Of a stretch of 11,478 nt of DNA, positions 139-10,317 are shown one piece after another. Every line of letters starts with the position of its first letter. Position 1 is the first letter of the stretch. The notes beneath the pieces are model-generated. The model did not search any database and had not been told where the DNA came from. It saw only the letters and a list, made by a program, of their open reading frames with translations. The position numbers and the translations under genes are program-made. The DNA is from a virus: UHGV virus genome UHGV-0377753, one strand, 5' to 3'.

Positions 139-1205
139 TTGATTTCAATTTTGTCCCACTCCCTGCCTCTGTCATCACGATACTGTGATGCCATGGTGTC
201 CGACTTATGCCCGAGAAGATGTTGAGCAAACTTATCGCTTATCTGCTTCTCATAGAGTCTTGCAGACAAACTGCGCAACTCGTGAAAGGTAGGCGGATCC
301 CCTTCGAAGGAAAGACCTGATGCTTTTCGTGCGCGCATAAAATACCTTGATACTGTGCCGGATGAAAGCGGTTCACGACGAGTAGATGCAATTATGGTTT
401 CTCCGCCAAGAATCTTTTTGCATTTATCAAGTGTTTCCTTCATTGATATCCCGAGAGCATCAACATGCAATGTTGTTGGGATGGCAATTTTTACGCCTGT
501 TTTGCTTTGCTCGACATAAAGATATCCATCTACGATATCAGACCACTTCATTTCGCATAAATCACCAACTCGCTGCCCGGTAACAACAGCCAGTTCCATT
601 GCAAGTCTAAGCCAACATGGTGATGATTCTGCTGCTTGATAAATTTTCAGGTATTCGTCAGCCGTAAGTCTTGATCTCCTTACCTCTGATTTTGCAGCGC
701 GAGTGGCTGCGACCGGGTTTGTTGTTATATGGCCTTCAGCTATAGCCTCTCGGAATGCATCGCTCAGTGTTGATCTGATTAACTTGGCTGATGCCGCCTT
801 GCCCTCGTCTATGTATCCATTGAGCATTGCCGCAATTTCTTTTGTGGTGATGTCTTCAAGTGGAGCATCAGGCAGACCCCTCCTTATTGCTTTAATTTTG
901 CTCATGTAATTTATGAGTGTCTTCTGCTTGATTCCTCTGCTGGCCAGGATTTTTTCGTAGCGATCAAGCCATGAATGTAACGTAACGGAATTATCACTGT
1001 TGATTCTCGCTGTCAGAGGCTTGTGTTTGTGTCCTGAAAATAACTCAATGTTGGCCTGTATAGCTTCAGTGATTGCGATTCGCCTGTCTCGGCCTAATCC
1101 AAACTCTTTACCCGTCCTTGGGTCCCTGTAGCAGTAATATCCATTGTTTCTTATATAAAGGTTAGGGGGTAAATCCCGGCGCTCATGACTTCGCCTTCTT
1201 CCCAT
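135..1205 (-). CDS. int: Integrase (tyrosine recombinase), 356 aa
   Basis: The ORF translation MGRRRSHERRDLPPNLYIRNNGYYCYRDPRTGKEFGLG... is recognisable as lambda Int over its full length; TAA stop at 135-137 overlaps arm site P'3. Confidence 0.97.
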   Translation of the reverse strand: MGRRRSHERRDLPPNLYIRNNGYYCYRDPRTGKEFGLGRDRRIAITEAIQANIELFSGHKHKPLTARINSDNSVTLHSWLDRYEKILASRGIKQKTLINYMSKIKAIRRGLPDAPLEDITTKEIAAMLNGYIDEGKAASAKLIRSTLSDAFREAIAEGHITTNPVAATRAAKSEVRRSRLTADEYLKIYQAAESSPCWLRLAMELAVVTGQRVGDLCEMKWSDIVDGYLYVEQSKTGVKIAIPTTLHVDALGISMKETLDKCKKILGGETIIASTRREPLSSGTVSRYFMRARKASGLSFEGDPPTFHELRSLSARLYEKQISDKFAQHLLGHKSDTMASQYRDDRGREWDKIEIK

Positions 1206-1401
1206 TTCTGATCCTCTTCAAAAGGCTACCTGTTACTGGTCGATTTAAGTCAACCTTTACCGCTGATTCGTGGAACAGATACTCTCTTCCATCCTTAACC
1301 GGAGGAGGGAATATCCTGCACTCGCGTACCCATCGACGAACTGTTTCAAGGCTTCTTGGGCGTCGCTGGCGTGCGTTCCACTCCTGAAGTGTCAAGTACA
1401 T
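1183..1401 (-). CDS. xis: Excisionase, 72 aa
   Basis: Translation MYLTLQEWNARQRRPRSLETVRRWVRECRIFPPPVKDGREYLFHESAVKVDL... is lambda Xis; overlaps the int start by 23 nt as in lambda. Confidence 0.95.
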   Translation of the reverse strand: MYLTLQEWNARQRRPRSLETVRRWVRECRIFPPPVKDGREYLFHESAVKVDLNRPVTGSLLKRIRNGKKAKS

Positions 1402-1430
1402 CGCAAAGTCTCCGCAATTACACGCAAGAA
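1380..1430 (-). promoter_or_regulatory. pI promoter region with cII-binding TTGC-N6-TTGC repeat (1414-1427) overlapping the xis start
   Basis: Minus strand reads cTTGCgtgtaaTTGCggagactttgcgATG; TTGC-N6-TTGC is the cII recognition motif and its position at the xis 5' end corresponds to lambda pI. Confidence 0.6.
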
Positions 1431-1448
1431 AAAACCGCCATCAGGCGG
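1429..1448 (-). terminator. Short hairpin plus U-run at the 3' end of orf55 (putative intrinsic terminator)
   Basis: ccgcc (1435-1439) / ggcgg (1444-1448) stem with a 4-nt loop; the minus-strand RNA continues into UUUUUU (1429-1434). Confidence 0.4.
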
Positions 1449-1608
1449 CTTGGTGTTCTTTCAGTTCTTCAATTCGAATATTGGTTACGTCTGCATGTGC
1501 TATCTGCGCCCACAGCATCCAGTGGTCATAGCAGTCGCTGATGTTCTCGGCTTCGATAACTCTGTTGAATGGTTCTCCATTCCATTCACCTGTGACTCGG
1601 AAGTGCAT
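1441..1608 (-). CDS. Small conserved lambda protein (orf55-like), 55 aa
   Basis: ATG at 1608 preceded by GGAG Shine-Dalgarno (ggagatgataaATG); translation MHFRVTGEWNGEPFNRVIEAENISDCYDHWMLWAQIAHADVTNIRIEELKEHQAA. Falls below the ORF-track length cutoff; position and size match the small ORF between xis and ea8.5 in lambda (from memory). Confidence 0.6.
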   Translation of the reverse strand: MHFRVTGEWNGEPFNRVIEAENISDCYDHWMLWAQIAHADVTNIRIEELKEHQAA

Positions 1609-1620
1609 TTATCATCTCCA

Positions 1621-1647
1621 TAAAAAAAACTCGCCGTAGCGAGTTCA
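1621..1647 (-). terminator. Intrinsic terminator (7-bp stem aactcgc/gcgagtt, loop cgta, followed by U8 on the minus-strand RNA)
   Basis: Forward ataaaaaaaactcgccgtagcgagtt; on the minus strand a perfect hairpin is followed by UUUUUUUU. Confidence 0.6.
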
Positions 1648-1804
1648 GATAAAAGAAATCCCCGCGAGTGCGAGGATAGTTATTCATTGTCGATATTTAC
1701 ATTTATTTCGAATATCTTTACTGGGTAATCGCCAAAGTCATATATTTTTTATTCTGTTTTATAAGCACTACCAAGTACTGCTTATTACAAATAAGAAAAG
1801 GCTG

Positions 1805-1834
1805 AAAAAAATATTTAAGGCCACAACTGTGGCC
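1805..1834 (-). terminator. Intrinsic terminator immediately downstream of the DUF1311-like gene
   Basis: Palindrome ggccacaactgtggcc (1819-1834) followed on the minus strand by UUAAAUAUUUUUUU. Confidence 0.65.
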
Positions 1835-1844
1835 CTAAATTTAC

Positions 1845-2543
1845 TTACGGCACTGCGTTAATCAGATTACAAATACCTCTTTTGGCAGGGTCTGAATTCA
1901 ACTTCTGAAAATTGGCGTTCAACATAGCCGTGTGTAAGTGATTCTCAACCTCAAAGAATAGGTCGATTTTGCCCTCTTTGGCTGCCTGTTTCTTCCAAAT
2001 ATTCACTTGGTCATCAGCAATACGACTAGCGCAAGTGAACAAGAACGAACTGCCTCTAGGAATGGATGTCGTGCTGTAATACTCACCATCTACTTCTACA
2101 TATTTAGCTCGGAATGACTCTAAGGTTAGCTTATTGCCGTTCTTGACCGACTTAGCTTCTGCCTTACTTGTATCTTCCTGCTCTTTAGAATGTTTCTGCG
2201 CCGACGTGGGTATGTCATTGGCCGCTGTTACGCTGACTGAACTCCCCAAACCTTTGAGGCCATTAATTTGGATAAGATAAGCCAGCTCCAGAGCCTTATT
2301 ATCAGTGAGTTTTCCACGCATATTTACCCACTGACGTTGAACCATTTTTAGGGTGTCTGCGTTCTCTGGGTTTCCTTTGAGGGCACTAGAATAGGCAGAG
2401 CTAAGCTGTTCGTCTAATTTTGACAGACGTTCGTTATCGCAGATTTTATGTTCGATTGCTGTCGAAGCCTTTTGGCAGTCAAAGCTGGCTGCAAATGCAC
2501 CCGGCGATGCCACTAACAATGATGCCAGTAGGATATTTTTCAT
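1845..2543 (-). CDS. Secreted (periplasmic) protein with N-terminal DUF1311 / LprI-like domain, 232 aa; occupies the position of lambda ea8.5
   Basis: Preferred start ATG 2543 with GGAG Shine-Dalgarno (gtatttatGGAGtgaatATG); the track ORF extends to 2570. Signal peptide MKNILLASLLVASPGAFA|AS. The motif FDCQKASTAIEHKICDNERLSKLDEQLSSAYSSALK fits the DUF1311 C..A.T..E..IC....L..LD..L...Y pattern. Much larger than the 93-aa Ea8.5. Confidence 0.75.
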   Translation of the reverse strand: MKNILLASLLVASPGAFAASFDCQKASTAIEHKICDNERLSKLDEQLSSAYSSALKGNPENADTLKMVQRQWVNMRGKLTDNKALELAYLIQINGLKGLGSSVSVTAANDIPTSAQKHSKEQEDTSKAEAKSVKNGNKLTLESFRAKYVEVDGEYYSTTSIPRGSSFLFTCASRIADDQVNIWKKQAAKEGKIDLFFEVENHLHTAMLNANFQKLNSDPAKRGICNLINAVP

Positions 2544-2571
2544 ATTCACTCCATAAATACAAAAGCGCATT

Positions 2572-2612
2572 ACTATAGCACTTAACCGATCGCTTATCTC
2601 GCCCGTTCGTCA
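2572..2612 (-). promoter_or_regulatory. Putative sigma70 promoter for the DUF1311 moron (extended -10 TGcTATAGT)
   Basis: Minus strand reads ...gttaagTGcTATAGTaatgcgcttttgtatttatggagtgaatATG; the -35 is weak. Confidence 0.35.
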
Positions 2613-2673
2613 TTCTTATCTAACCAGAACATGCGACTGCCACAGCACATGTCGAGGATTGCTGCATGTCCAG

Positions 2674-3222
2674 TCACTGGTTGCCTCCTTTGCGAAGCTG
2701 GGCGGCTAACTCATCACATATGTGCGTCAAAGAGCAAAGTTTGATTGATGGATGTTCGCGCATCATCTCCACCCCCTGCGCCCGTACTTCAGCCAGGAAA
2801 GCATCGGTGGCTGGCATATTTCCTGTTGCCTTCATGGCCTCCAAAATAACCAGAACACCATCTCTCCCAATCTCCTCGCAGATAACCTCGGTGCTGTCGC
2901 CAACAACATCGCAGAATTCCTGAACTGCTTTACGAGCCAGCTCATTCTCCGCCGCCAGCGCCGAAAACTTCTCGTGTGCCAACTTAACAGCTGCATCAGC
3001 CTGCTTAATTGACTCAGTCGCTTTCTGGTGGTCTTCGGCCAGCCCTGCTAAATCAGCCTCCAGTTCGGCTAGGCGTTCATTTAATGCATCTCGTTCATCC
3101 AGTAGAGCCAGCACAACCTGAGGTGTGACTTTCATACGAAATGCCAGCAATTTTTGAGGTGTTGCTACTGTTTCAATTGCTACTGCCGCCTCACGCAGTG
3201 CCTGAGAGTTAATTTCGCTCAC
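2674..3222 (-). CDS. ea22: Ea22-like early protein, 182 aa, coiled-coil rich
   Basis: N-terminus MSEINSQALREAA... and the 182-aa length match lambda Ea22; the start overlaps the orf73 stop (ATGA). Confidence 0.8.
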   Translation of the reverse strand: MSEINSQALREAAVAIETVATPQKLLAFRMKVTPQVVLALLDERDALNERLAELEADLAGLAEDHQKATESIKQADAAVKLAHEKFSALAAENELARKAVQEFCDVVGDSTEVICEEIGRDGVLVILEAMKATGNMPATDAFLAEVRAQGVEMMREHPSIKLCSLTHICDELAAQLRKGGNQ

Positions 3223-3440
3223 TTCGAACCTCTCTGTTTACTGATAAGTTCCAGATCCTCCTGGCAACTTGCACAAGTCCGACAACCCTGAACGGCCAAG
3301 CGTCTTCGTTCATCTATCGGATCGCCACACTCACAACAATGAGTGGCAGATATAGCCTGGTGGTTCAGGCGGCGCATTTTTATTGCTGTGTTGCGCTGTA
3401 ATTCTTCAATTTCTGATGCTGAATCAATGATGTCTGCCAT
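3219..3440 (-). CDS. TraR/DksA-family C4 zinc-finger protein (lambda orf73-like), 73 aa
   Basis: 73 aa with CxxC...CxxC (HCCECGD ... CRTCASC), the same size and architecture as F-plasmid TraR; lambda Orf73 is a described TraR homolog. Shine-Dalgarno aggga upstream. Confidence 0.8.
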   Translation of the reverse strand: MADIIDSASEIEELQRNTAIKMRRLNHQAISATHCCECGDPIDERRRLAVQGCRTCASCQEDLELISKQRGSK

Positions 3441-3490
3441 CTTTCATTAATCCCTGAATTGTTGGTTAATACGCTTGAGGGTGAATGCGA

Positions 3491-3516
3491 ATAATAAAAA
3501 AGGAGCCTGTAGCTCC
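3491..3516 (-). terminator. Intrinsic terminator-like hairpin within the leftward early operon (possibly tL3-equivalent)
   Basis: Stem ggagc (3502-3506) / gctcc (3512-3516) with loop ctgta, followed on the minus strand by UUUUUUAUUAUU. Confidence 0.45.
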
Positions 3517-3538
3517 CTGATGATTTTGCTTTTCATGT

Positions 3539-3820
3539 TCACCGTTCCTTAAAGACGCCGTTCAACATGCCGATCGCCAGGCTTAAATGAGTCGGTGTGA
3601 ATCCCATCAGCGTTACCGTTTCGCGGTGCTTCTTTAGTACGCTACGGCAAATGTCATCGACGTTTTTATCCGGAAACTGCTGTCTGGCTTTTTTGATTTC
3701 AGAATTAGCCTGACGGGCAATGCTGCGAAGGGCGTTTTCTTGCTGAGGTGTCATTGAACAAGCCCCATGTCGGCAAGCATAAGCACACAGAATATGAAGC
3801 CCGCTGCCAGAAAAATGCAT
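3539..3820 (-). CDS. Hypothetical protein in the lambda orf61 frame, 93 aa (alternative start 3754 gives 71 aa)
   Basis: Open frame MHFSGSGLHILCAYACRHGACSMTPQQENALRSIARQANSEIKKARQQFPDKNVDDICRSV...; an in-frame ATG at 3850 is cut off by TGA at 3821-3823 directly before this ATG. It ends just upstream of the terminator at 3491-3516. Confidence 0.45.
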   Translation of the reverse strand: MHFSGSGLHILCAYACRHGACSMTPQQENALRSIARQANSEIKKARQQFPDKNVDDICRSVLKKHRETVTLMGFTPTHLSLAIGMLNGVFKER

Positions 3821-3830
3821 TCAGTGGTTG

Positions 3831-4022
3831 TCATACCTGGTCTCTCTCATCTGCTTCTGCTTTCGCCACCATCATTTCCAGCTTTTGTGAAAGGGATGCG
3901 GCTAACGTATGAAATTCTTCGTCTGTTTCTACTGGTATTGGCACAAACCTGACTCCAATTTGAGCGAGGCTATGTGCCATCTCGATACTCGTTCTTAACT
4001 CAACGGGAGATGCTTTGTGCAT
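3831..4022 (-). CDS. Lambda Orf63-like protein, 63 aa
   Basis: Translation [63 protein letters not shown]; position and size as lambda orf63. Confidence 0.8.
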   Translation of the reverse strand: MHKASPVELRTSIEMAHSLAQIGVRFVPIPVETDEEFHTLAASLSQKLEMMVAKAEADERDQV

Positions 4023-4177
4023 ACAGCTCCCCGTTTATTATTTATCTCCTCAGCCAGCCGCTGTGCTTTCAGGGGATTTCTGATAACAGAAAGGCCGGGA
4101 AATACCCAGCCTCGCTTTGTAATGGAGTAGACGAAAGTGATCGCGCCTACCCGGATATTATCGTGAGGATGCGTCAT
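3995..4177 (-). CDS. Lambda Orf60a-like protein, 60 aa (the track ORF extends 2 codons further upstream)
   Basis: Translation [60 protein letters not shown]; overlaps the exo stop by 4 nt and orf63 by 28 nt, as in lambda. Confidence 0.7.
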
Positions 4178-4854
4178 CGCCATTGCTCCCCAAATACAAA
4201 ACCAATTTCAGCCAGTGCCTCGTCCATTTTTTCGATGAACTCCGGCACCATCTCGTCAAAACTCGCCATGTAATTTTCATCCCGCTCAACCACGACATAA
4301 TGCAGGCCTTCACGCTTCATTCGTGGGTCATAGTTGGCAAAGTACCAGGCATCTTTTCGCGTCACCCACATGCTGTACTGCACCTGGGCCATGTAAGCCG
4401 ATTTTATGGCCTCGAAACCACCGAGCCGGAACTTCATGAAATCCCGGGAGGTAAACGGGCATTTCAGTTCAAGGCCGTTGCCGTCACTGCATAAACCATC
4501 GGGAGAGCAGGCGGTGCGCATACTTTCGTCGCGATAGATGATCGGGGATTCAGTAACATTAACGCCGGAAGTGAACTCAAAGAGGGTTCTGGCGTCGTTC
4601 TCGTACTGTTTTCCCCAGGCCAGCGCCTTAGCGTTAACTTCCGGAGCCACACCGGTGCAAACCTCAGCCAGCAGGGTGTGGAAGTAGGACATTTTCATGT
4701 CAGGCCACTTCTTTCCTGAGCGGGGCTTTGCTATCACGTTGTGAACTTCTGAAGCGGTGATGACGCCGAGCCGTAATTTGTGCCATGCATCATCCCCCTG
4801 TTCGACAGCTCTCACGTCGATCCCGGTACGCTGCAGGATAATGTCCGGTGTCAT
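4174..4854 (-). CDS. exo: Lambda exonuclease (Red alpha), 226 aa
   Basis: Full-length match to lambda Exo ([65 protein letters not shown]...). Confidence 0.97.
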
Positions 4855-5636
4855 GCAGCCACCTTCTGTTCAGAGGCTTTCTGTTTCAGGAATCCAAGAG
4901 CTTTCATTGCTTCGGCCTGTGTCAGTTCTGACGATGCGCGAATGTCGCGGCGAAATATCTGGGAACAGAGCGGCAATAAGTCGTCATCCCATGTTTTGTC
5001 CAGGGCAATCAGCATAGTGTTAATCTCCTGCATGGTTTCATCGTTAACCGGAGTGATGTCGCGTTCCGGCTGACGTTCTGCAGTGTATGCGGTATTTTCG
5101 ACAATGCGCTCGGCTTCATCCTTGTCATAGATACCAGCAAATCCGAAGGCCAGACGGGCACACTGAATCATGGCTTTATGCCGTAACATCCGTTTGGGAT
5201 GCGACTGCCACGGTCCGGTGATTTCTCTGCCTTCGCGGGTTTTGAATGGTTCGCGGCGGCATTCATCCATCCACTCGGTAACGCAGATCGGATGATTACG
5301 GTCCTTGCGGTAAATCCGGCATGTACATGATTCATTGTCCTGCTCAAAGTCCATGCCATCAAACTGCTGGTTTTCATTGATGATACGGGACCAGCCATCA
5401 ACGCCCACCACCGGAACGATGCCGTTCTGCTTGTCAGGGAAGGCGTAAATTTCTTTCGTCCACGGATTAAGGCCGTACTGGTTGGCGACGATCAACAATG
5501 CGATGAACTGCGCATCGCTGGCATCGCCTTTAAATGCCGTCTGGCGAAGAGTGGTGATCAGTTCCTGTGGGTCGACAGAATCCATGCCGACACGTTCAGC
5601 CAGCTTCCCTGCCAGCGTTGCGAGTGCTGTACTCAT
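4851..5636 (-). CDS. bet: Red beta single-strand annealing protein, 261 aa
   Basis: Full-length match to lambda Bet ([261 protein letters not shown]); 4-nt overlap with exo. Confidence 0.97.
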
Positions 5637-5641
5637 CCGTT

Positions 5642-6058
5642 TTATACCTCTGAATCAATATCAACCTGATGGTGAGCAATGGTTTCAACCATGTACCGGA
5701 TGTGTTCTGCCATGCGCTCCTGAAACTCAACATCGTCATCAAACGCACGGGTAATGGCTTTTTTGCTGGCCCCGTGGCGTTGCAAATGATCGATGCATAG
5801 CGATTCAAACAGGTGCTGGGGCAGGCCTTTTTCCATGTCGTCTGCCAGTTCTGCCTCTTTCTCTTCACGGGCTATCTGCTGGTAGTGACGCGCCCAGCTC
5901 TGAGCCTCAAGACGATCCTGAATGTAATAAGCGTTCATGGCCGAACTCCTGAAATAGCTGTGAAAATATCGCCCGCGAAATGCCGGGCTGATTAGGAAAA
6001 CAGGAAAGGGGGTTAGTGAATGCTTTTGCTTGATCTCAGTTTCAGTATTAATATCCAT
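5642..6058 (-). CDS. gam: Gam (RecBCD inhibitor), 138-aa long form; the internal start MNAYYIQ gives the 98-aa GamS form
   Basis: Translation [138 protein letters not shown] matches lambda Gam. Confidence 0.95.
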
Positions 6059-6156
6059 TTTTTATAAGCGTCGACGGCCTCACGAAACATCTTTTCATCG
6101 CCAATAAAAGTGGCAATAGTGAATTTTGTCTGGATAGCCATAAGTTTTTTATCCAT
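6013..6156 (-). CDS. kil: Kil (host cell-division inhibitor), 47 aa
   Basis: ATG at 6156; translation [47 protein letters not shown]; overlaps the gam start and the cIII 3' end as in lambda. Below the track cutoff as a separate start (the track shows an 89-aa extended frame). Confidence 0.85.
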
Positions 6157-6289
6157 TTTTGGGTACTCCTGGCTGATTAAGTATGTCGATAAGGCGTTTC
6201 CATCCGTCACGTAATTTACGGGTGATTCGTTCAAGTAAAGATTCGGAAGGGCAGCCAGCAACAGGCCACCCTGCAATGGCATATTGCAT
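6149..6289 (-). CDS. cIII: cIII (FtsH/HflB inhibitor), 46 aa here, C-terminally shorter than the 54-aa lambda protein
   Basis: ATG at 6289 with Shine-Dalgarno AGGAGC; translation [46 protein letters not shown] then TAA at 6149-6151. The track ORF carries a spurious upstream extension. Confidence 0.85.
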   Translation of the reverse strand: MQYAIAGWPVAGCPSESLLERITRKLRDGWKRLIDILNQPGVPKNG

Positions 6290-6899: not shown

Positions 6900-7797
<898 letters not shown>

Positions 7798-7955
7798 CTG
7801 GATTCTCTTGTCAGTTAGCTTTGGTGGTGTGTGGGAGTCGTAGTCCTGAACGAAAACACCCCACGATTGGCTCATTTGCAGCTAATCCGGATTCGCACTT
7901 CCGGCCAATGTTTCGTTTCGTATCACACACCCCAAAGCCTTCTGCTTTGAATGCT

Positions 7956-7987
7956 GCCCTTCTTCAGGGCTTAATTTTTAAGAGCAT
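7956..7987 (-). promoter_or_regulatory. nutL: nutL (boxB hairpin 7956-7970, GCCCTGAAGAAGGGC on the minus strand; boxA 7978-7986)
   Basis: Exact lambda nutL boxB on the minus strand; the adjacent boxA reads TGCTCTTAA on the minus strand. Confidence 0.85.
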
Positions 7988-8019
7988 CACCTTCATGTGG
8001 GTTAGTGCGTCCTGCTGGT

Positions 8020-8090
8020 GTGTTTAGTATCACCGCTAGTGGTATTTGTGTCAACACCGCCAGAGATAATTTATCACCGCAGATGGTTAT
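8020..8090 (-). promoter_or_regulatory. pL promoter with operators oL1 (8028-8044), oL2 (8052-8068), oL3 (8072-8088)
   Basis: -35 TTGACA (revcomp of 8049-8054) and -10 GATACT (revcomp of 8026-8031) on the minus strand. Three 17-bp CI/Cro operator half-site pairs: tatcaccgctagtggta, caacaccgccagagata, tatcaccgcagatggtt. Confidence 0.9.
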
Positions 8091-8242
8091 CTGTATGTTT
8101 TTTATATAGATTTATTTTTTGCAGGGTTGTGTGGCTTGGGAGGTGATCGAGAGATCAGAATTGCGTTGTTTAGTGAGTTGCACCTATTAATTTTAAAATA
8201 AATACAATTGGTTATGTGTTTTTAGGTGGGGCGATCGTGAGG

Positions 8243-8269
8243 CAAAGAAAACCCGGCTCGGTGGCCGGG
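8243..8269 (-). terminator. Intrinsic terminator ending the cI-distal immunity transcript, immediately after the NYN gene stop
   Basis: Stem cccggc/gccggg (8252-8257 / 8264-8269) with loop tcggtg, followed on the minus strand by UUUUCUUUG. It sits where lambda has the terminator after rexB. Confidence 0.7.
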
Positions 8270-8278
8270 TTGATGGGA

Positions 8279-9136
8279 TTATCGTTTATTTCTTTGATGT
8301 TTCTTTGCAGACTCAGCTTGAGTGTTTCCATACCTGCGTTTACCGCTATTGTTTTTTCCCCTAGGCTTGCCTTTTTTTCGATCTTCCCACCAGTCAGGTG
8401 CCGGGTCTGGCTCAACATGTAAAGCATCGGCAAGTCCTGATATCAAGCTGTATGACTGAACTCCATCAATGTGCTCTGACAGTGATGGGGTAACATTCTG
8501 TCTTAGTGGATCAAGAATAAAATCAATACCTTTAATTCTGGCGTGTTTGGCGGCAGGCACAAAGTCTGAGTCCCCAGCAACAAGGACAATTACATCAACA
8601 AGTTTTTCATAAGCTAAAGTCGTGATATCCATCCCTAGCTTGATATCAACTTGTTTTTGTTTGATGTCATAGTAAAAATCATCATTTGTCAGTTCATCCC
8701 ATTTTTTCGTTCCTTTCATCAGAGCATCAAGGGAGAATGTAGTTAGTTGCCATCGCTTATTATCAACAAGATTCCCTAATCTTAAGGCTGTTTTTCGAGT
8801 TTTTCTTAACTCTTCATGCAGCTCCGTTCTCAGAATATATGATTTTTCGAGTTTGAAATTCTTGCGACCAGGCGTCTTATTGCCAGGCTCAGGAAGTGGA
8901 AGGCGTGTTTGAATGTCGAGTGGTGGACAGTCATAGAAGTAAATTCTATAAAGCTCAAGCGGTTCCCTACGTTCTTGTGATTGACGTTTTCCATTAAGAT
9001 GGGAAAGAACCATTGACCATATTACTTTCATTATGCATTGCGCAGTCAGTTCATGCTCGGCGAAGTGTTTACGATGCGTAGCATGAACACGCTGCATGAA
9101 AAAACCCGCATCAATTAAAATTGCTGCTTTCTTCAT
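8279..9136 (-). CDS. NYN-domain (PIN-like, LabA/YacP-type) predicted RNase with a highly basic C-terminal tail, 285 aa; occupies the rexA-rexB slot between cI and pL
   Basis: N-terminal motif MKKAAILIDAGFF and C-terminal motif DIKLGMDITTLAYEKLVDVIVLVAGDSDFVPAAKHARIKGIDFIL match the two conserved NYN blocks (Asp in IDAG; GDSDF). The tail WWEDRKKGKPRGKNNSGKRRYGNTQAESAKKHQRNKR is Lys/Arg-rich. AT-rich codon usage. Confidence 0.8.
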   Translation of the reverse strand: MKKAAILIDAGFFMQRVHATHRKHFAEHELTAQCIMKVIWSMVLSHLNGKRQSQERREPLELYRIYFYDCPPLDIQTRLPLPEPGNKTPGRKNFKLEKSYILRTELHEELRKTRKTALRLGNLVDNKRWQLTTFSLDALMKGTKKWDELTNDDFYYDIKQKQVDIKLGMDITTLAYEKLVDVIVLVAGDSDFVPAAKHARIKGIDFILDPLRQNVTPSLSEHIDGVQSYSLISGLADALHVEPDPAPDWWEDRKKGKPRGKNNSGKRRYGNTQAESAKKHQRNKR

Positions 9137-9216
9137 AAGAGTCCCAAAAAAATAGCCCAGAGCCGTTATGCAGATATTAACAATTGTCTGCGAACGGGGC
9201 TGGGCTTGGTTTAATT

Positions 9217-9246
9217 AATCTATGCCAAGTTGACTGTGCCGTCAAC
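9217..9246 (-). promoter_or_regulatory. Predicted sigma70 promoter for the NYN gene (-35 TTGACG, 17-bp spacer, -10 TAGATT) overlapping a perfect inverted repeat GTTGAC-N6-GTCAAC (9229-9246)
   Basis: Minus strand reads TTGACGgcacagtcaacttggcaTAGATT; the palindrome gttgactgtgccgtcaac spans the -35 and spacer. Confidence 0.55.
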
Positions 9247-9263
9247 ATAAAACTTACTTCCTA

Positions 9264-9980
<717 letters not shown>

Positions 9981-9983
9981 TTA

Positions 9984-10052
9984 AATCTATCACCGCAAGG
10001 GATAAATATCTAACACCGTGCGTGTTGACTATTTTACCTCTGGCGGTGATAA
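9984..10052. promoter_or_regulatory. Right operator: oR3 (9988-10004), oR2 (10011-10027), oR1 (10035-10051); pRM on the minus strand (-10 9984-9989, -35 10007-10012); pR on the plus strand (-35 TTGACT 10025-10030, -10 GATAAT 10047-10052)
   Basis: tatcaccgcaagggata / taacaccgtgcgtgttg / tacctctggcggtgata are the lambda oR3, oR2 and oR1 sequences. Confidence 0.93.
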
Positions 10053-10068
10053 TAGTTGCATGTACTAA

Positions 10069-10278
<210 letters not shown>

Positions 10279-10285
10279 ATAACCC

Positions 10286-10317
10286 CGCTCTTACCCATCC
10301 CCGCCCTGAAAAAGGGC
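10286..10317 (+). promoter_or_regulatory. nutR: nutR (boxA CGCTCTTAC 10286-10294; boxB GCCCTGAAAAAGGGC 10303-10317)
   Basis: Canonical lambda nutR boxA and boxB hairpin sequence. Confidence 0.9.

Follow-up and report, generated by a model that had tools for sequence, protein, structure and literature searches.

Exclusion genes are classically located in the cI-N region of lambdoid prophages, and in phage lambda the genes of the rexAB slot are expressed during lysogeny and keep out other phages. Those NYN enzymes that have been characterised (MARF1, Regnase-1, PRORP and Rae1) cleave RNA, and to our knowledge the functions of bacterial NYN nucleases are almost unknown. The current work concerns a cassette in the virus genome UHGV-0377753, of which a stretch of 11,478 nucleotides (nt; referred to here as the window) was analyzed, this window extending from int to the O gene and matching the lambda-like Radostvirus ev099, an Escherichia phage (NC_049953.1), with 100% identity. 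In the window, rexA and rexB are replaced by a 988-bp insert, which is a self-contained cargo ('moron') cassette, modular and mobile, and which forms an autonomous unit consisting of a promoter, a structured leader, an NYN gene and a terminator. Read from its sequence, this cassette appears to be single-gene nuclease cargo that is controlled at the RNA level.

The limits of the cassette were derived from BLASTN alignments to lambda. Window positions 9260-10298, representing the end of cI and onward, are 97.8% identical to lambda, and positions 7800-8271 match lambda (89.8% identity) as far as the rexB stop codon and the tIMM hairpin. Since these alignments end at 8271 and 9260, the replaced segment is 8272-9259, being a non-lambda sequence that stands in for rexB, rexA and the spacer between cI and rexA. 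An earlier reading of the window (referred to here as the initial annotation) had placed the cassette at 8243-9263, which is close to, yet not exactly, the segment defined here. Its central observation, namely that the roughly 1 kb between cI and the terminator encodes a single gene instead of rexA/rexB, was confirmed by the comparison with lambda, and only the boundaries and the numbering of the GDSD aspartates had to be corrected. No Rex family match was obtained for the segment, from which lambda homology is missing and in which one soluble protein is encoded. The corresponding open reading frame (ORF) is single and intact, specifies 285 amino acids (aa) and contains the motifs ILIDAGFF and VLVAGDSDFVPAAKHARIKGIDFIL that had been quoted for it; its description as AT-rich holds in a moderate sense, as its GC content is 0.37-0.43 versus 0.46-0.49 in cI. 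The 127 bp located between the cI stop codon and the NYN start codon are cassette DNA and not lambda DNA according to BLASTN. Where lambda sequence resumes, the terminator hairpin that had been noted was recovered at 8271-8250, with 8 pairs of which 6 are GC in the terminator scan, and with an RNA fold z-score of -3.2.

Taken by itself, the promoter-like site upstream of the NYN gene (Table 1) is no better than chance, three such sites being present versus 4.4 expected from shuffled sequences. A sigma-70 match of at least 8/12 occupies the equivalent position in 30 of 39 homologous loci whose contexts are unrelated, and its -10 element ends a median of 7 nt before the RNA model begins, within 4-9 nt at 27 of these 30 loci; the RNA model itself begins 3-5 nt ahead of the hairpin described below. 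In the Bacteroidales copies, the corresponding place holds TAnnTTTG instead of a sigma-70 element, a sequence which we take to be the Bacteroidetes -7 element. Because the promoter is conserved together with the leader, every lineage has the hairpin right at the 5' end of a transcript of the cassette's own; in the window, transcription would start near 9210. The proposal of the initial annotation that the gene possesses its own promoter was thereby strengthened, and it is very probable that the cassette represents a transcription unit of its own with a functional leader. Expression together with cI had been offered as the other option; it is called into question by the hairpin and U7 run that separate cI from the NYN gene.

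The -35 element is overlapped by a perfect 6-6-6 palindrome, which from its sequence may be an operator for some regulator. Repeats resembling TTGAC-N5-9-GTCAA were observed in the copies of Tatumella, Yersinia, Edwardsiella, Photorhabdus and P. syringae, though not in all copies, and the palindrome was rejected as a general feature of the cassette because it is not kept in all lineages.

The most unusual feature of the cassette, which had been overlooked in the initial annotation, is a three-helix hairpin in the 5' leader of the NYN gene, located about 10 nt downstream of the -10 element (Table 1). Its GC-rich P1 helix and the U7 run constitute an element that resembles an intrinsic terminator 10 nt 5' of the start codon and that is kept in homologues; the U7 run is followed by a weak GGGA Shine-Dalgarno sequence and then by the ATG at 9136, and a run of T residues is found 3' of the hairpin at almost every homologous locus. 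The same arrangement precedes the NYN gene in Pantoea, Tatumella, Yersinia, Photorhabdus, Xenorhabdus, Ewingella, Edwardsiella and four Pseudomonas species, as well as in Halomonas, on Acinetobacter plasmids and in Proteus phage Brookers, in contexts that are unrelated to each other.

Covariation supports this structure. In an alignment of 12 sequences (A2), 95.1% of the cells are paired and compensatory double changes are present in 10 of the 17 pairs, versus 4.4±1.2 following column shuffling (0 of 500 shuffles being as high as 10) and 0-3 when the 3' partners were slid. A covariance model (R1) assigned 81.3 bits to the window leader in the sense orientation versus 27.2 bits in antisense; across loci the corresponding values are 69-86 and 15-28 bits, with one occurrence per locus, directly upstream of the NYN ORF. 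The U-G pairs and the U tail favour an RNA specified by the sense strand. The leader is identical at 65 of 65 nt between ev099 and Pantoea, whereas the coding DNA is 74% identical with saturated synonymous sites, so that constraint acts on the sequence as well as on the shape. The leader is therefore under selection for both structure and sequence. Rfam 15 returned no relevant match to the window at E<=1; in 11 homologous loci nothing reached the gathering score, and the surroundings of two leaders of a second type (type B, see below) yielded nothing at E<=10. Tandem Repeats Finder (TRF) reported no tandem repeats (0 rows) in 8200-9300, and a single hairpin is present per locus.

Table 1. Position of the cassette components and flanking elements in the window, and of leader copies elsewhere (L numbers denote individual loci).
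Feature	Coordinates	Strand	Basis or remark
cI repressor, lambda immunity, upstream boundary	9264..9977	-	237-aa ORF; 97.8% nt identity to lambda; annotated LexA family regulator
Palindrome GTTGAC-GGCACA-GTCAAC (perfect, 6-6-6), overlapping the -35	9229..9246	-	read from sequence
Putative cassette promoter: -35 TTGACG (9245-9240), 17-nt spacer, -10 TAGATT (9222-9217)	9217..9245	-	consensus scan 9/12
Three-helix leader hairpin, ~53 nt	9154..9206	-	RNA fold and covariation
P1, 7 bp, AGCCCAG/CUGGGCU	9206-9200 with 9160-9154	-	RNA fold
P2, 5 bp, CCGUU/AACGG	9197-9193 with 9167-9163	-	RNA fold
P3, 5 bp, GCAGA/UCUGC	9191-9187 with 9174-9170	-	RNA fold
Apical loop, 12 nt, CAAUUGUUAAUA	9186-9175	-	RNA fold
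U7 run directly 3' of the hairpin, ending 10 nt before the start codon	9146..9152	-	read from sequence
NYN (LabA/MARF1-type, PIN-like) nuclease gene, 285 aa	8279..9136	-	residues 1-250 globular; 258-285 basic, disordered
tIMM-like intrinsic terminator, common to lambda, downstream boundary	8243..8271	-	terminator scan, fold and BLASTN
Promoter and leader upstream of NYN ORFs	9146-9246 (window)	-	also at loci L007, L015, L019, L022, L025, L028-L042, L057, L064, L072-L111
Orphan leader, L140	9214-9279		S24 CI-like repressor and XRE gene upstream; RelA_SpoT (toxSAS-like) gene 250 nt downstream
Orphan leader, L220	758-823	-	two Abi_2 genes upstream
Orphan leader, L226	9251-9314		Ltp lipoprotein gene upstream; truncated ToxN on the opposite strand; integrase

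Membership of the encoded protein in the NYN family, which the initial annotation had deduced from motifs, was substantiated by profile searches, structure prediction and residue conservation. The Pfam NYN profile (PF01936) matched with 36.8 bits versus a curated gathering score of 24.2 (E = 6.8e-9), the match being limited to residues 158-205 (profile positions 72-119 of 145), and TIGR00288 obtained 29.6 bits, far under its cut-off of 178. PHROG 5783 ('unknown function') matched along the full length of the protein (E = 1.5e-119), the best PADLOC matches reached 19 and 16 bits across about 45 residues in the GDSDF region, and none of PADLOC, NCBIfam and PHROGs supplied a functional name. An AlphaFold2 model based on 40 homologues (pLDDT 87.2, pTM 0.79), which is poorly modelled only at residues 51-54 and in the tail from about residue 258, displays the three-layer alpha/beta/alpha fold of NYN nucleases, and the MARF1 NYN domain was the first-ranked Foldseek match (E = 2.8e-4). 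Fold comparison alone was successful in this respect, a search of PDB sequences with the single protein or with a 40-sequence profile having retrieved no solved structure.

Across 40 homologues with identities down to 41%, the acidic residues D9, D69, D164, D170, D189, D191 and D224 are invariant, as are H222 and the basic or other residues R22, H46, R64, R114, K115, R119, W129, Q160, K161, K166, K197 and R200. The acidic set predicted for an NYN active site (the strand-1 Asp, the VD/D helix and GDSD) is conserved as D9, D164, D170, D189 and D191, where the GDSD aspartates, previously numbered D188 and D190, are D189 and D191 if Met is counted as residue 1. The segment QKxVDIKLGMDI...VLVAGDSDFVPAAK is presumably the LabA-type NYN signature. 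The Lys/Arg-rich C-terminal tail had been suggested to bind RNA, a suggestion that finds no support because the tail is not conserved in sequence, is missing from the forms of ~215-230 aa and is disordered in the model (pLDDT about 52). Comparison with relatives from Pantoea, Tatumella, Yersinia, Photorhabdus, Xenorhabdus and the Proteus phage yielded non-synonymous divergence (dN) of 0.10-0.23 with saturated synonymous divergence (dS), which indicates that the protein is under purifying selection.

There is little doubt that the protein is an NYN nuclease; by analogy with described members it is probably a metal-dependent NYN (LabA/MARF1-like, PIN-superfamily) endonuclease with a conserved basic surface and predicted RNase activity, RNA being its most likely substrate. 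The domain assignment is not new, since RefSeq already names the ev099 gene product 'NYN domain-containing protein', and the gene is one for which no experimental description was found. The statement of the initial annotation that it did not recognise a described system is thus correct as regards function, not as regards the domain name. A literature search covering ev099, mEp332/HK phages, NYN proteins in prophages, defence and RNA motifs returned nothing relevant.

The following mode of action is proposed. The cassette would be transcribed leftward from its own sigma-70 promoter, and the first ~60 nt of the transcript would fold into a three-tier hairpin ending in U7, at which most transcripts would probably stop, both those initiated at the cassette promoter and those arriving from PRM/PRE through cI. 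The ORF would then be reached by read-through only, leaving the nuclease low and insulated in the lysogen, its low level being expected because the hairpin and U7 run probably end most transcription. The nuclease would most likely represent a toxic effector that is expressed by the lysogen against superinfecting phages or competing elements, having an exclusion or abortive-infection role as RexAB has in the same slot, and the leader RNA would set the nuclease dose by attenuation and might in addition be bound or cleaved by the nuclease itself. The presence of a dedicated promoter and of a conserved terminator-like hairpin before an NYN gene makes the cassette a candidate lysogen-expressed toxin or defence gene. 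To this composite reading, of an attenuated NYN nuclease with a probable exclusion or abortive-infection role in the lysogen, a probability of about 0.5 is assigned. Judging from the form of the leader, attenuation is its somewhat favoured mode of action. We infer termination at the leader, expression in the lysogen, RNase activity and the anti-phage role.

At least two variants of the leader exist, being the three-helix enterobacterial form and a widespread form (type B) with an AGUA/GAN internal loop. Type B is located upstream of homologues from beta- and gammaproteobacteria, Acidobacteria, Elusimicrobia, phiE202 and Mcat4, and related forms are found in Bacteroidales, on the Proteus chromosome and in Streptococcus phage Javan84. 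It consists of an 8-bp GC-rich P1, an internal loop (CAGUAC on the 5' side, CGAnC on the 3' side) in which AGUA and C-C-x-A (CCGA) are invariant, a variable P2 hairpin and a U tail. RNAalifold applied to the first MAFFT alignment of type B (A4) recovered almost no structure because bulges and U-U pairs had shifted the register. In a cleaner re-aligned subset for which the structure was supplied by hand (A5), P1 is 88.5% paired with compensatory changes in 4 of its 8 pairs, and the P2 columns are poorly aligned and 60% paired. The derived model (R2) detected 24 copies at E<=1e-3 in 1.02 Mb, all of them on the gene strand and directly upstream of an NYN gene. AGUA opposite GAN appears to resemble the bulged-G (sarcin-ricin/loop E) module, a likeness which, within the unlikely trans-acting RNA proposal considered below, hints that the natural target of the nuclease may be an rRNA loop of the sarcin-ricin type.

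Leader copies were also sought in IMG/VR by means of a pattern representing the type-B core, GGCAGTAMGC-N15-45-GCCGANCC. Most of the matches are chance occurrences in GC-rich coding DNA, 105 of 120 stretches being without a downstream NYN gene. About 15 stretches contain the full type-B motif (37-64 bits with R2), of which 8 continue into an NYN ORF and 5 (L140, L220, L226, L128 and L225) have no NYN homologue anywhere in the locus stretch; in L150 and L118 the motif is near the end of the stretch. As the neighbours of the three orphan leaders listed in Table 1 include RelA_SpoT, Abi_2 and ToxN genes, the leader element recurs in lysogeny or cargo modules of prophages beside toxic genes. Such orphan leaders could be relics of cassette exchange, a control element shared by toxic cargo, or decoys.

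That decoys are conceivable bears on a different explanation, in which the cassette is a toxin module with an RNA antitoxin, comparable to type III toxin-antitoxin (TA) or addiction systems. The short leader RNA, made in abundance and ending at the U run, would bind and neutralise the NYN nuclease or be its preferred substrate, and once transcription ceased, owing to shut-off by a phage or to disappearance of the element, the nuclease would be released, the main role being stabilisation of the prophage or plasmid with or without abortive infection. The layout of promoter, short structured RNA, terminator-like element and endonuclease corresponds to ToxIN-type systems, the gene is never accompanied by a conserved protein partner, the sequence of the leader is itself conserved (65/65 nt, and the invariant AGUA and CCGA in type B), the family is frequent on plasmids, and copies in which the gene is truncated or deleted and the leader retained are common (about 200 O157:H7 genomes and a remnant in Stx2a phages). 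However, TRF detected no repeats and only one hairpin is present per locus, the toxin fold is NYN and not ToxN/AbiQ, binding of the leader by the protein is posited by analogy, and chromosomal orthologues with conserved synteny, as reported below, would be unusual for TA modules. This explanation is considered unlikely, and no more likely is the specific proposal, likewise drawn by analogy, that the leader is a trans-acting small RNA which neutralises the nuclease or serves as its preferred substrate, thereby defining a repeat-less, hairpin-type class of RNA-antitoxin abortive-infection systems.

The family comprises 7035 proteins at E<=1e-3. In GTDB, with one genome per species, at least 589 relatives were confirmed by tblastn, and among the matches listed Proteobacteria, Bacteroidota, Acidobacteriota, Elusimicrobiota and Firmicutes are represented. 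Among 5426 complete E. coli genomes, 74 (1.4%) contain the intact cassette, and many of these come from avian, livestock (pig), dog and human isolates. Another approximately 200 genomes, of O157:H7, retain the leader and only the first ~118 codons, which PGAP names 'hypothetical' or 'PIN domain-containing'. PGAP also splits the intact ORF of E. coli chromosomes (L002 4037-4894, L004 6037-6894) in two, naming one part a 117-aa 'NYN' protein and treating the N-terminal part as a pseudogene ('PIN' or 'hypothetical'). A real frameshift behind this split was rejected, since these copies match the intact ev099 ORF with 100% identity at the DNA level, and it was probably the truncated O157:H7 copy that seeded the split annotation.

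The truncated copies, together with an internally deleted remnant in Stx2a phages, might suggest that the cassette is neutral or decaying cargo. This explanation is most improbable given that many unrelated E. coli strains, four isolated Escherichia phages and 45 of 48 Stx2a phages share an intact, identical 285-aa ORF, and given the strong purifying selection, the invariant active site and the conserved promoter and leader.

Homologues are present in 67 phage records, 48 of which are sequenced Stx2a-converting phages with an intact copy, the other carriers including Escherichia phages ev099, 2B8, E212 and EC.P3, Proteus phage Brookers, Moraxella phage Mcat4, Burkholderia phage phiE202, Streptococcus phage Javan84, and Dorea and Lactococcus phages. 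The phiE202 copy (gp9, L108) is labelled 'Cpp15', presumably after the name of a Campylobacter plasmid protein. A total of 170 plasmids carry a homologue, of which 136 are from Campylobacter and 129 are conjugative. This carriage on conjugative plasmids and by temperate phages of five phyla, always as a single gene, would also suit a counter-defence or competition factor, in which case the RNAs destroyed by the nuclease would belong to systems of the host or of rivals, examples being CRISPR RNAs, retron RNAs, RNA antitoxins and the transcripts of rival phages. Nevertheless, its position in the lysogeny module and its constitutive-looking promoter point to expression in the established lysogen and not at entry, the targets named are hypothetical, and profile searches detected no similarity to known anti-defence proteins. 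Such a role is regarded as very unlikely.

The NYN gene is always solitary, no conserved partner gene accompanying it. In phage 2B8 the same cassette follows a different CI repressor, in Stx2a phages it follows cI and a DUF3024 gene, and in Proteus phage Brookers the homologue is located directly after a LexA-type/CI-like repressor. It is flanked by an XRE repressor and the integrase in Streptococcus phage Javan84, adjoins the integrase in Pseudomonas, Halomonas and phiE202 prophages, is found between Q and the holin in an Edwardsiella prophage, and sits among toxin-antitoxin genes on Acinetobacter Rep3 plasmids.

A composite early region was observed in the Stx2a-converting phage LC616031 (L003), where positions 292-6196 encompass two N genes and two immunity remnants with an IS3-family element between them. 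One of its NYN copies is internally deleted (matching window positions 8151-8397 and 9043-9294) and adjoins a truncated repressor; the other is intact, with the DUF3024 gene between cI and the leader.

On chromosomes of the Rhodanobacteraceae (Rhodanobacter, Dyella and Frateuria), the gene is part of a conserved order consisting of LysR, NYN, a methyltransferase-like gene, an RluE-like pseudouridine synthase and TatD, and on the Proteus chromosome a homologue occupies a fixed place beside glmS. The orthologues from Rhodanobacter, Dyella, Frateuria and related bacteria (L043-L085) are ~215-220 aa in length and have a simpler GC-rich 5' hairpin that follows a TAGAAT or TAAAAT -10 element.

The conserved chromosomal neighbourhood and the fixed glmS site are in accordance with a further explanation, according to which the protein is a physiological RNase for RNA processing or regulation that was borrowed by phages and plasmids and is not an immune gene. 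It would adjust transcripts of the host or element in the lysogen and would be autoregulated by cleavage or binding of its own 5' leader; RNase III and RNase E are known to regulate their own mRNAs. The large size and age of the family, which extends across several phyla, and the non-defensive outcome for an E. coli NYND protein (see below) also agree with this explanation. Set against it, the gene belongs to prophages and plasmids in Enterobacterales, Pseudomonas, Acinetobacter, Campylobacter, Streptococcus and Burkholderia, where it is located in cargo slots beside repressor, integrase or toxin-antitoxin genes, its occurrence in E. coli is patchy, and in the window it fills the exact rexAB slot. 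A borrowed cellular RNase is considered rather unlikely.

Returning to the attenuated nuclease with an exclusion or abortive-infection role, the defence component of this reading is plausible from location and mobility, and for an anti-phage role as such the odds are judged to fall slightly short of even. DS-34, a validated defence gene, is adjacent to a CI repressor (PMC13092281), which establishes the cI-adjacent slot as a proven home for defence genes. Several observations weigh against this reading. Termination at the leader would be read from the shape of the hairpin, which a simple terminator scan does not call, since its criteria of a single stem and a loop of 3-8 nt do not fit an interrupted three-helix hairpin with a 12-nt loop. 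The support for a function of the protein or its close homologues derives from sequence and a structural model. The PADLOC matches, to HEC-09 (E = 2e-4) and to the LabA-like NYN model PDLC01154 (E = 1.4e-3), are weak and partial, so that checking this catalogue, as the initial annotation had advised, revealed no described system. E. coli NYND (WP_001399740.1, 215 aa), which is likened to the present protein by domain name only, was cloned and scored 'defensive = FALSE' in the DefensePredictor screen (PMC13092281). The Rhodanobacteraceae neighbourhood and the Proteus glmS site suggest a cellular role, and the bond between leader and NYN nuclease is not a strict one, as is evident from the orphan leaders that have no NYN gene.

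Two other genes of the window are recorded here. A 167-aa ORF on the plus strand (6978-7481), located just left of N, appears to encode a coiled-coil followed by a Cys-rich, zinc-ribbon-like C terminus, and obtained no Pfam or PADLOC match; in the ev099 RefSeq record a different small ORF on the minus strand is annotated at this position, and in E. coli chromosomes the plus-strand ORF. Lambda has sieB at this position, and the ORF may be another replaced exclusion gene. On the minus strand, 1845-2570 is a gene for a secreted protein of the LprI family (lysozyme inhibitor-like), placed between xis and an ea22-like gene in the b2/early-left cargo region.

With this cassette, the cI-N slot gains a single-gene nuclease for which no experimental description was found. 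New in the current work is a conserved leader RNA, absent from Rfam, which accompanies the NYN family from Proteobacteria to Bacteroidota and Firmicutes, and which offers a concrete handle on how a toxic nuclease without a partner may stay harmless in the lysogen. If the leader were an RNA antidote or a self-target, the cassette would represent a new build of toxin-antitoxin or abortive-infection modules, and a new RNA-protein pair for NYN nucleases.

When compared with known systems, the protein is closest in fold to the LabA/MARF1 branch of NYN (PF01936; 5YAA being the MARF1 NYN domain and 2QIP Vibrio VPA0982), to which its identity is 16-18%. It differs from that branch by long elaborations in the part linking strand 2 to the VD helix (about residues 70-160), by a PxWW motif and by its variable basic tail, and unlike MARF1 its family is without OST-HTH/LOTUS domains and has no characterised member. 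It shares the GDSDF region with the PADLOC models HEC-09 and 'NYN' PDLC01154 and is a member of neither, and no significant full-length match to known or candidate anti-phage proteins was found in PADLOC-DB 2.0 or among the DefensePredictor DS proteins. As in the autoregulated leaders of rnc and rne, a conserved hairpin is present in the 5' untranslated region of the nuclease's own mRNA; those leaders, however, are not terminator-like and are not situated at the extreme 5' end with a U run.

As regards its position, the gene resembles lambda RexAB in being located between the cI stop codon and tIMM and in being oriented as cI. There is no likeness in sequence or architecture, RexAB being a sensor and a membrane protein as opposed to the one soluble nuclease encoded here, and whereas lambda transcribes RexAB along with cI, the present gene is set apart from cI by a promoter and by a hairpin resembling a terminator. 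The gene order of type III TA and abortive-infection systems (ToxIN, AbiQ, CptIN and TenpIN), namely promoter, short structured RNA, terminator or terminator-like element and RNase gene, is shared by the cassette, as are the lack of a protein antitoxin and carriage by phages and plasmids. Because it has a single hairpin in place of tandem repeats, and an NYN/PIN-like fold (with no Pfam ToxN_toxin match) in place of the ToxN fold, the cassette is not a type III TA system in the defined sense.

DS-3 (WP_022645725.1) is a validated one-protein defence system from E. coli accessory DNA, whose PIN domain is split between the N and C termini and which has no cognate antitoxin (PMC13092281). The cassette is similar in that it encodes a single-gene nuclease of the PIN superfamily with predicted catalytic residues at both ends of the chain around a large insert. 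The possibility that DS-3 is the present gene was rejected because its Table S8 sequence is unrelated (BLASTP E = 0.38); no leader RNA is reported for DS-3, and the function of the cassette is a predicted one. The cassette is accordingly analogous, and not homologous, to DS-3.

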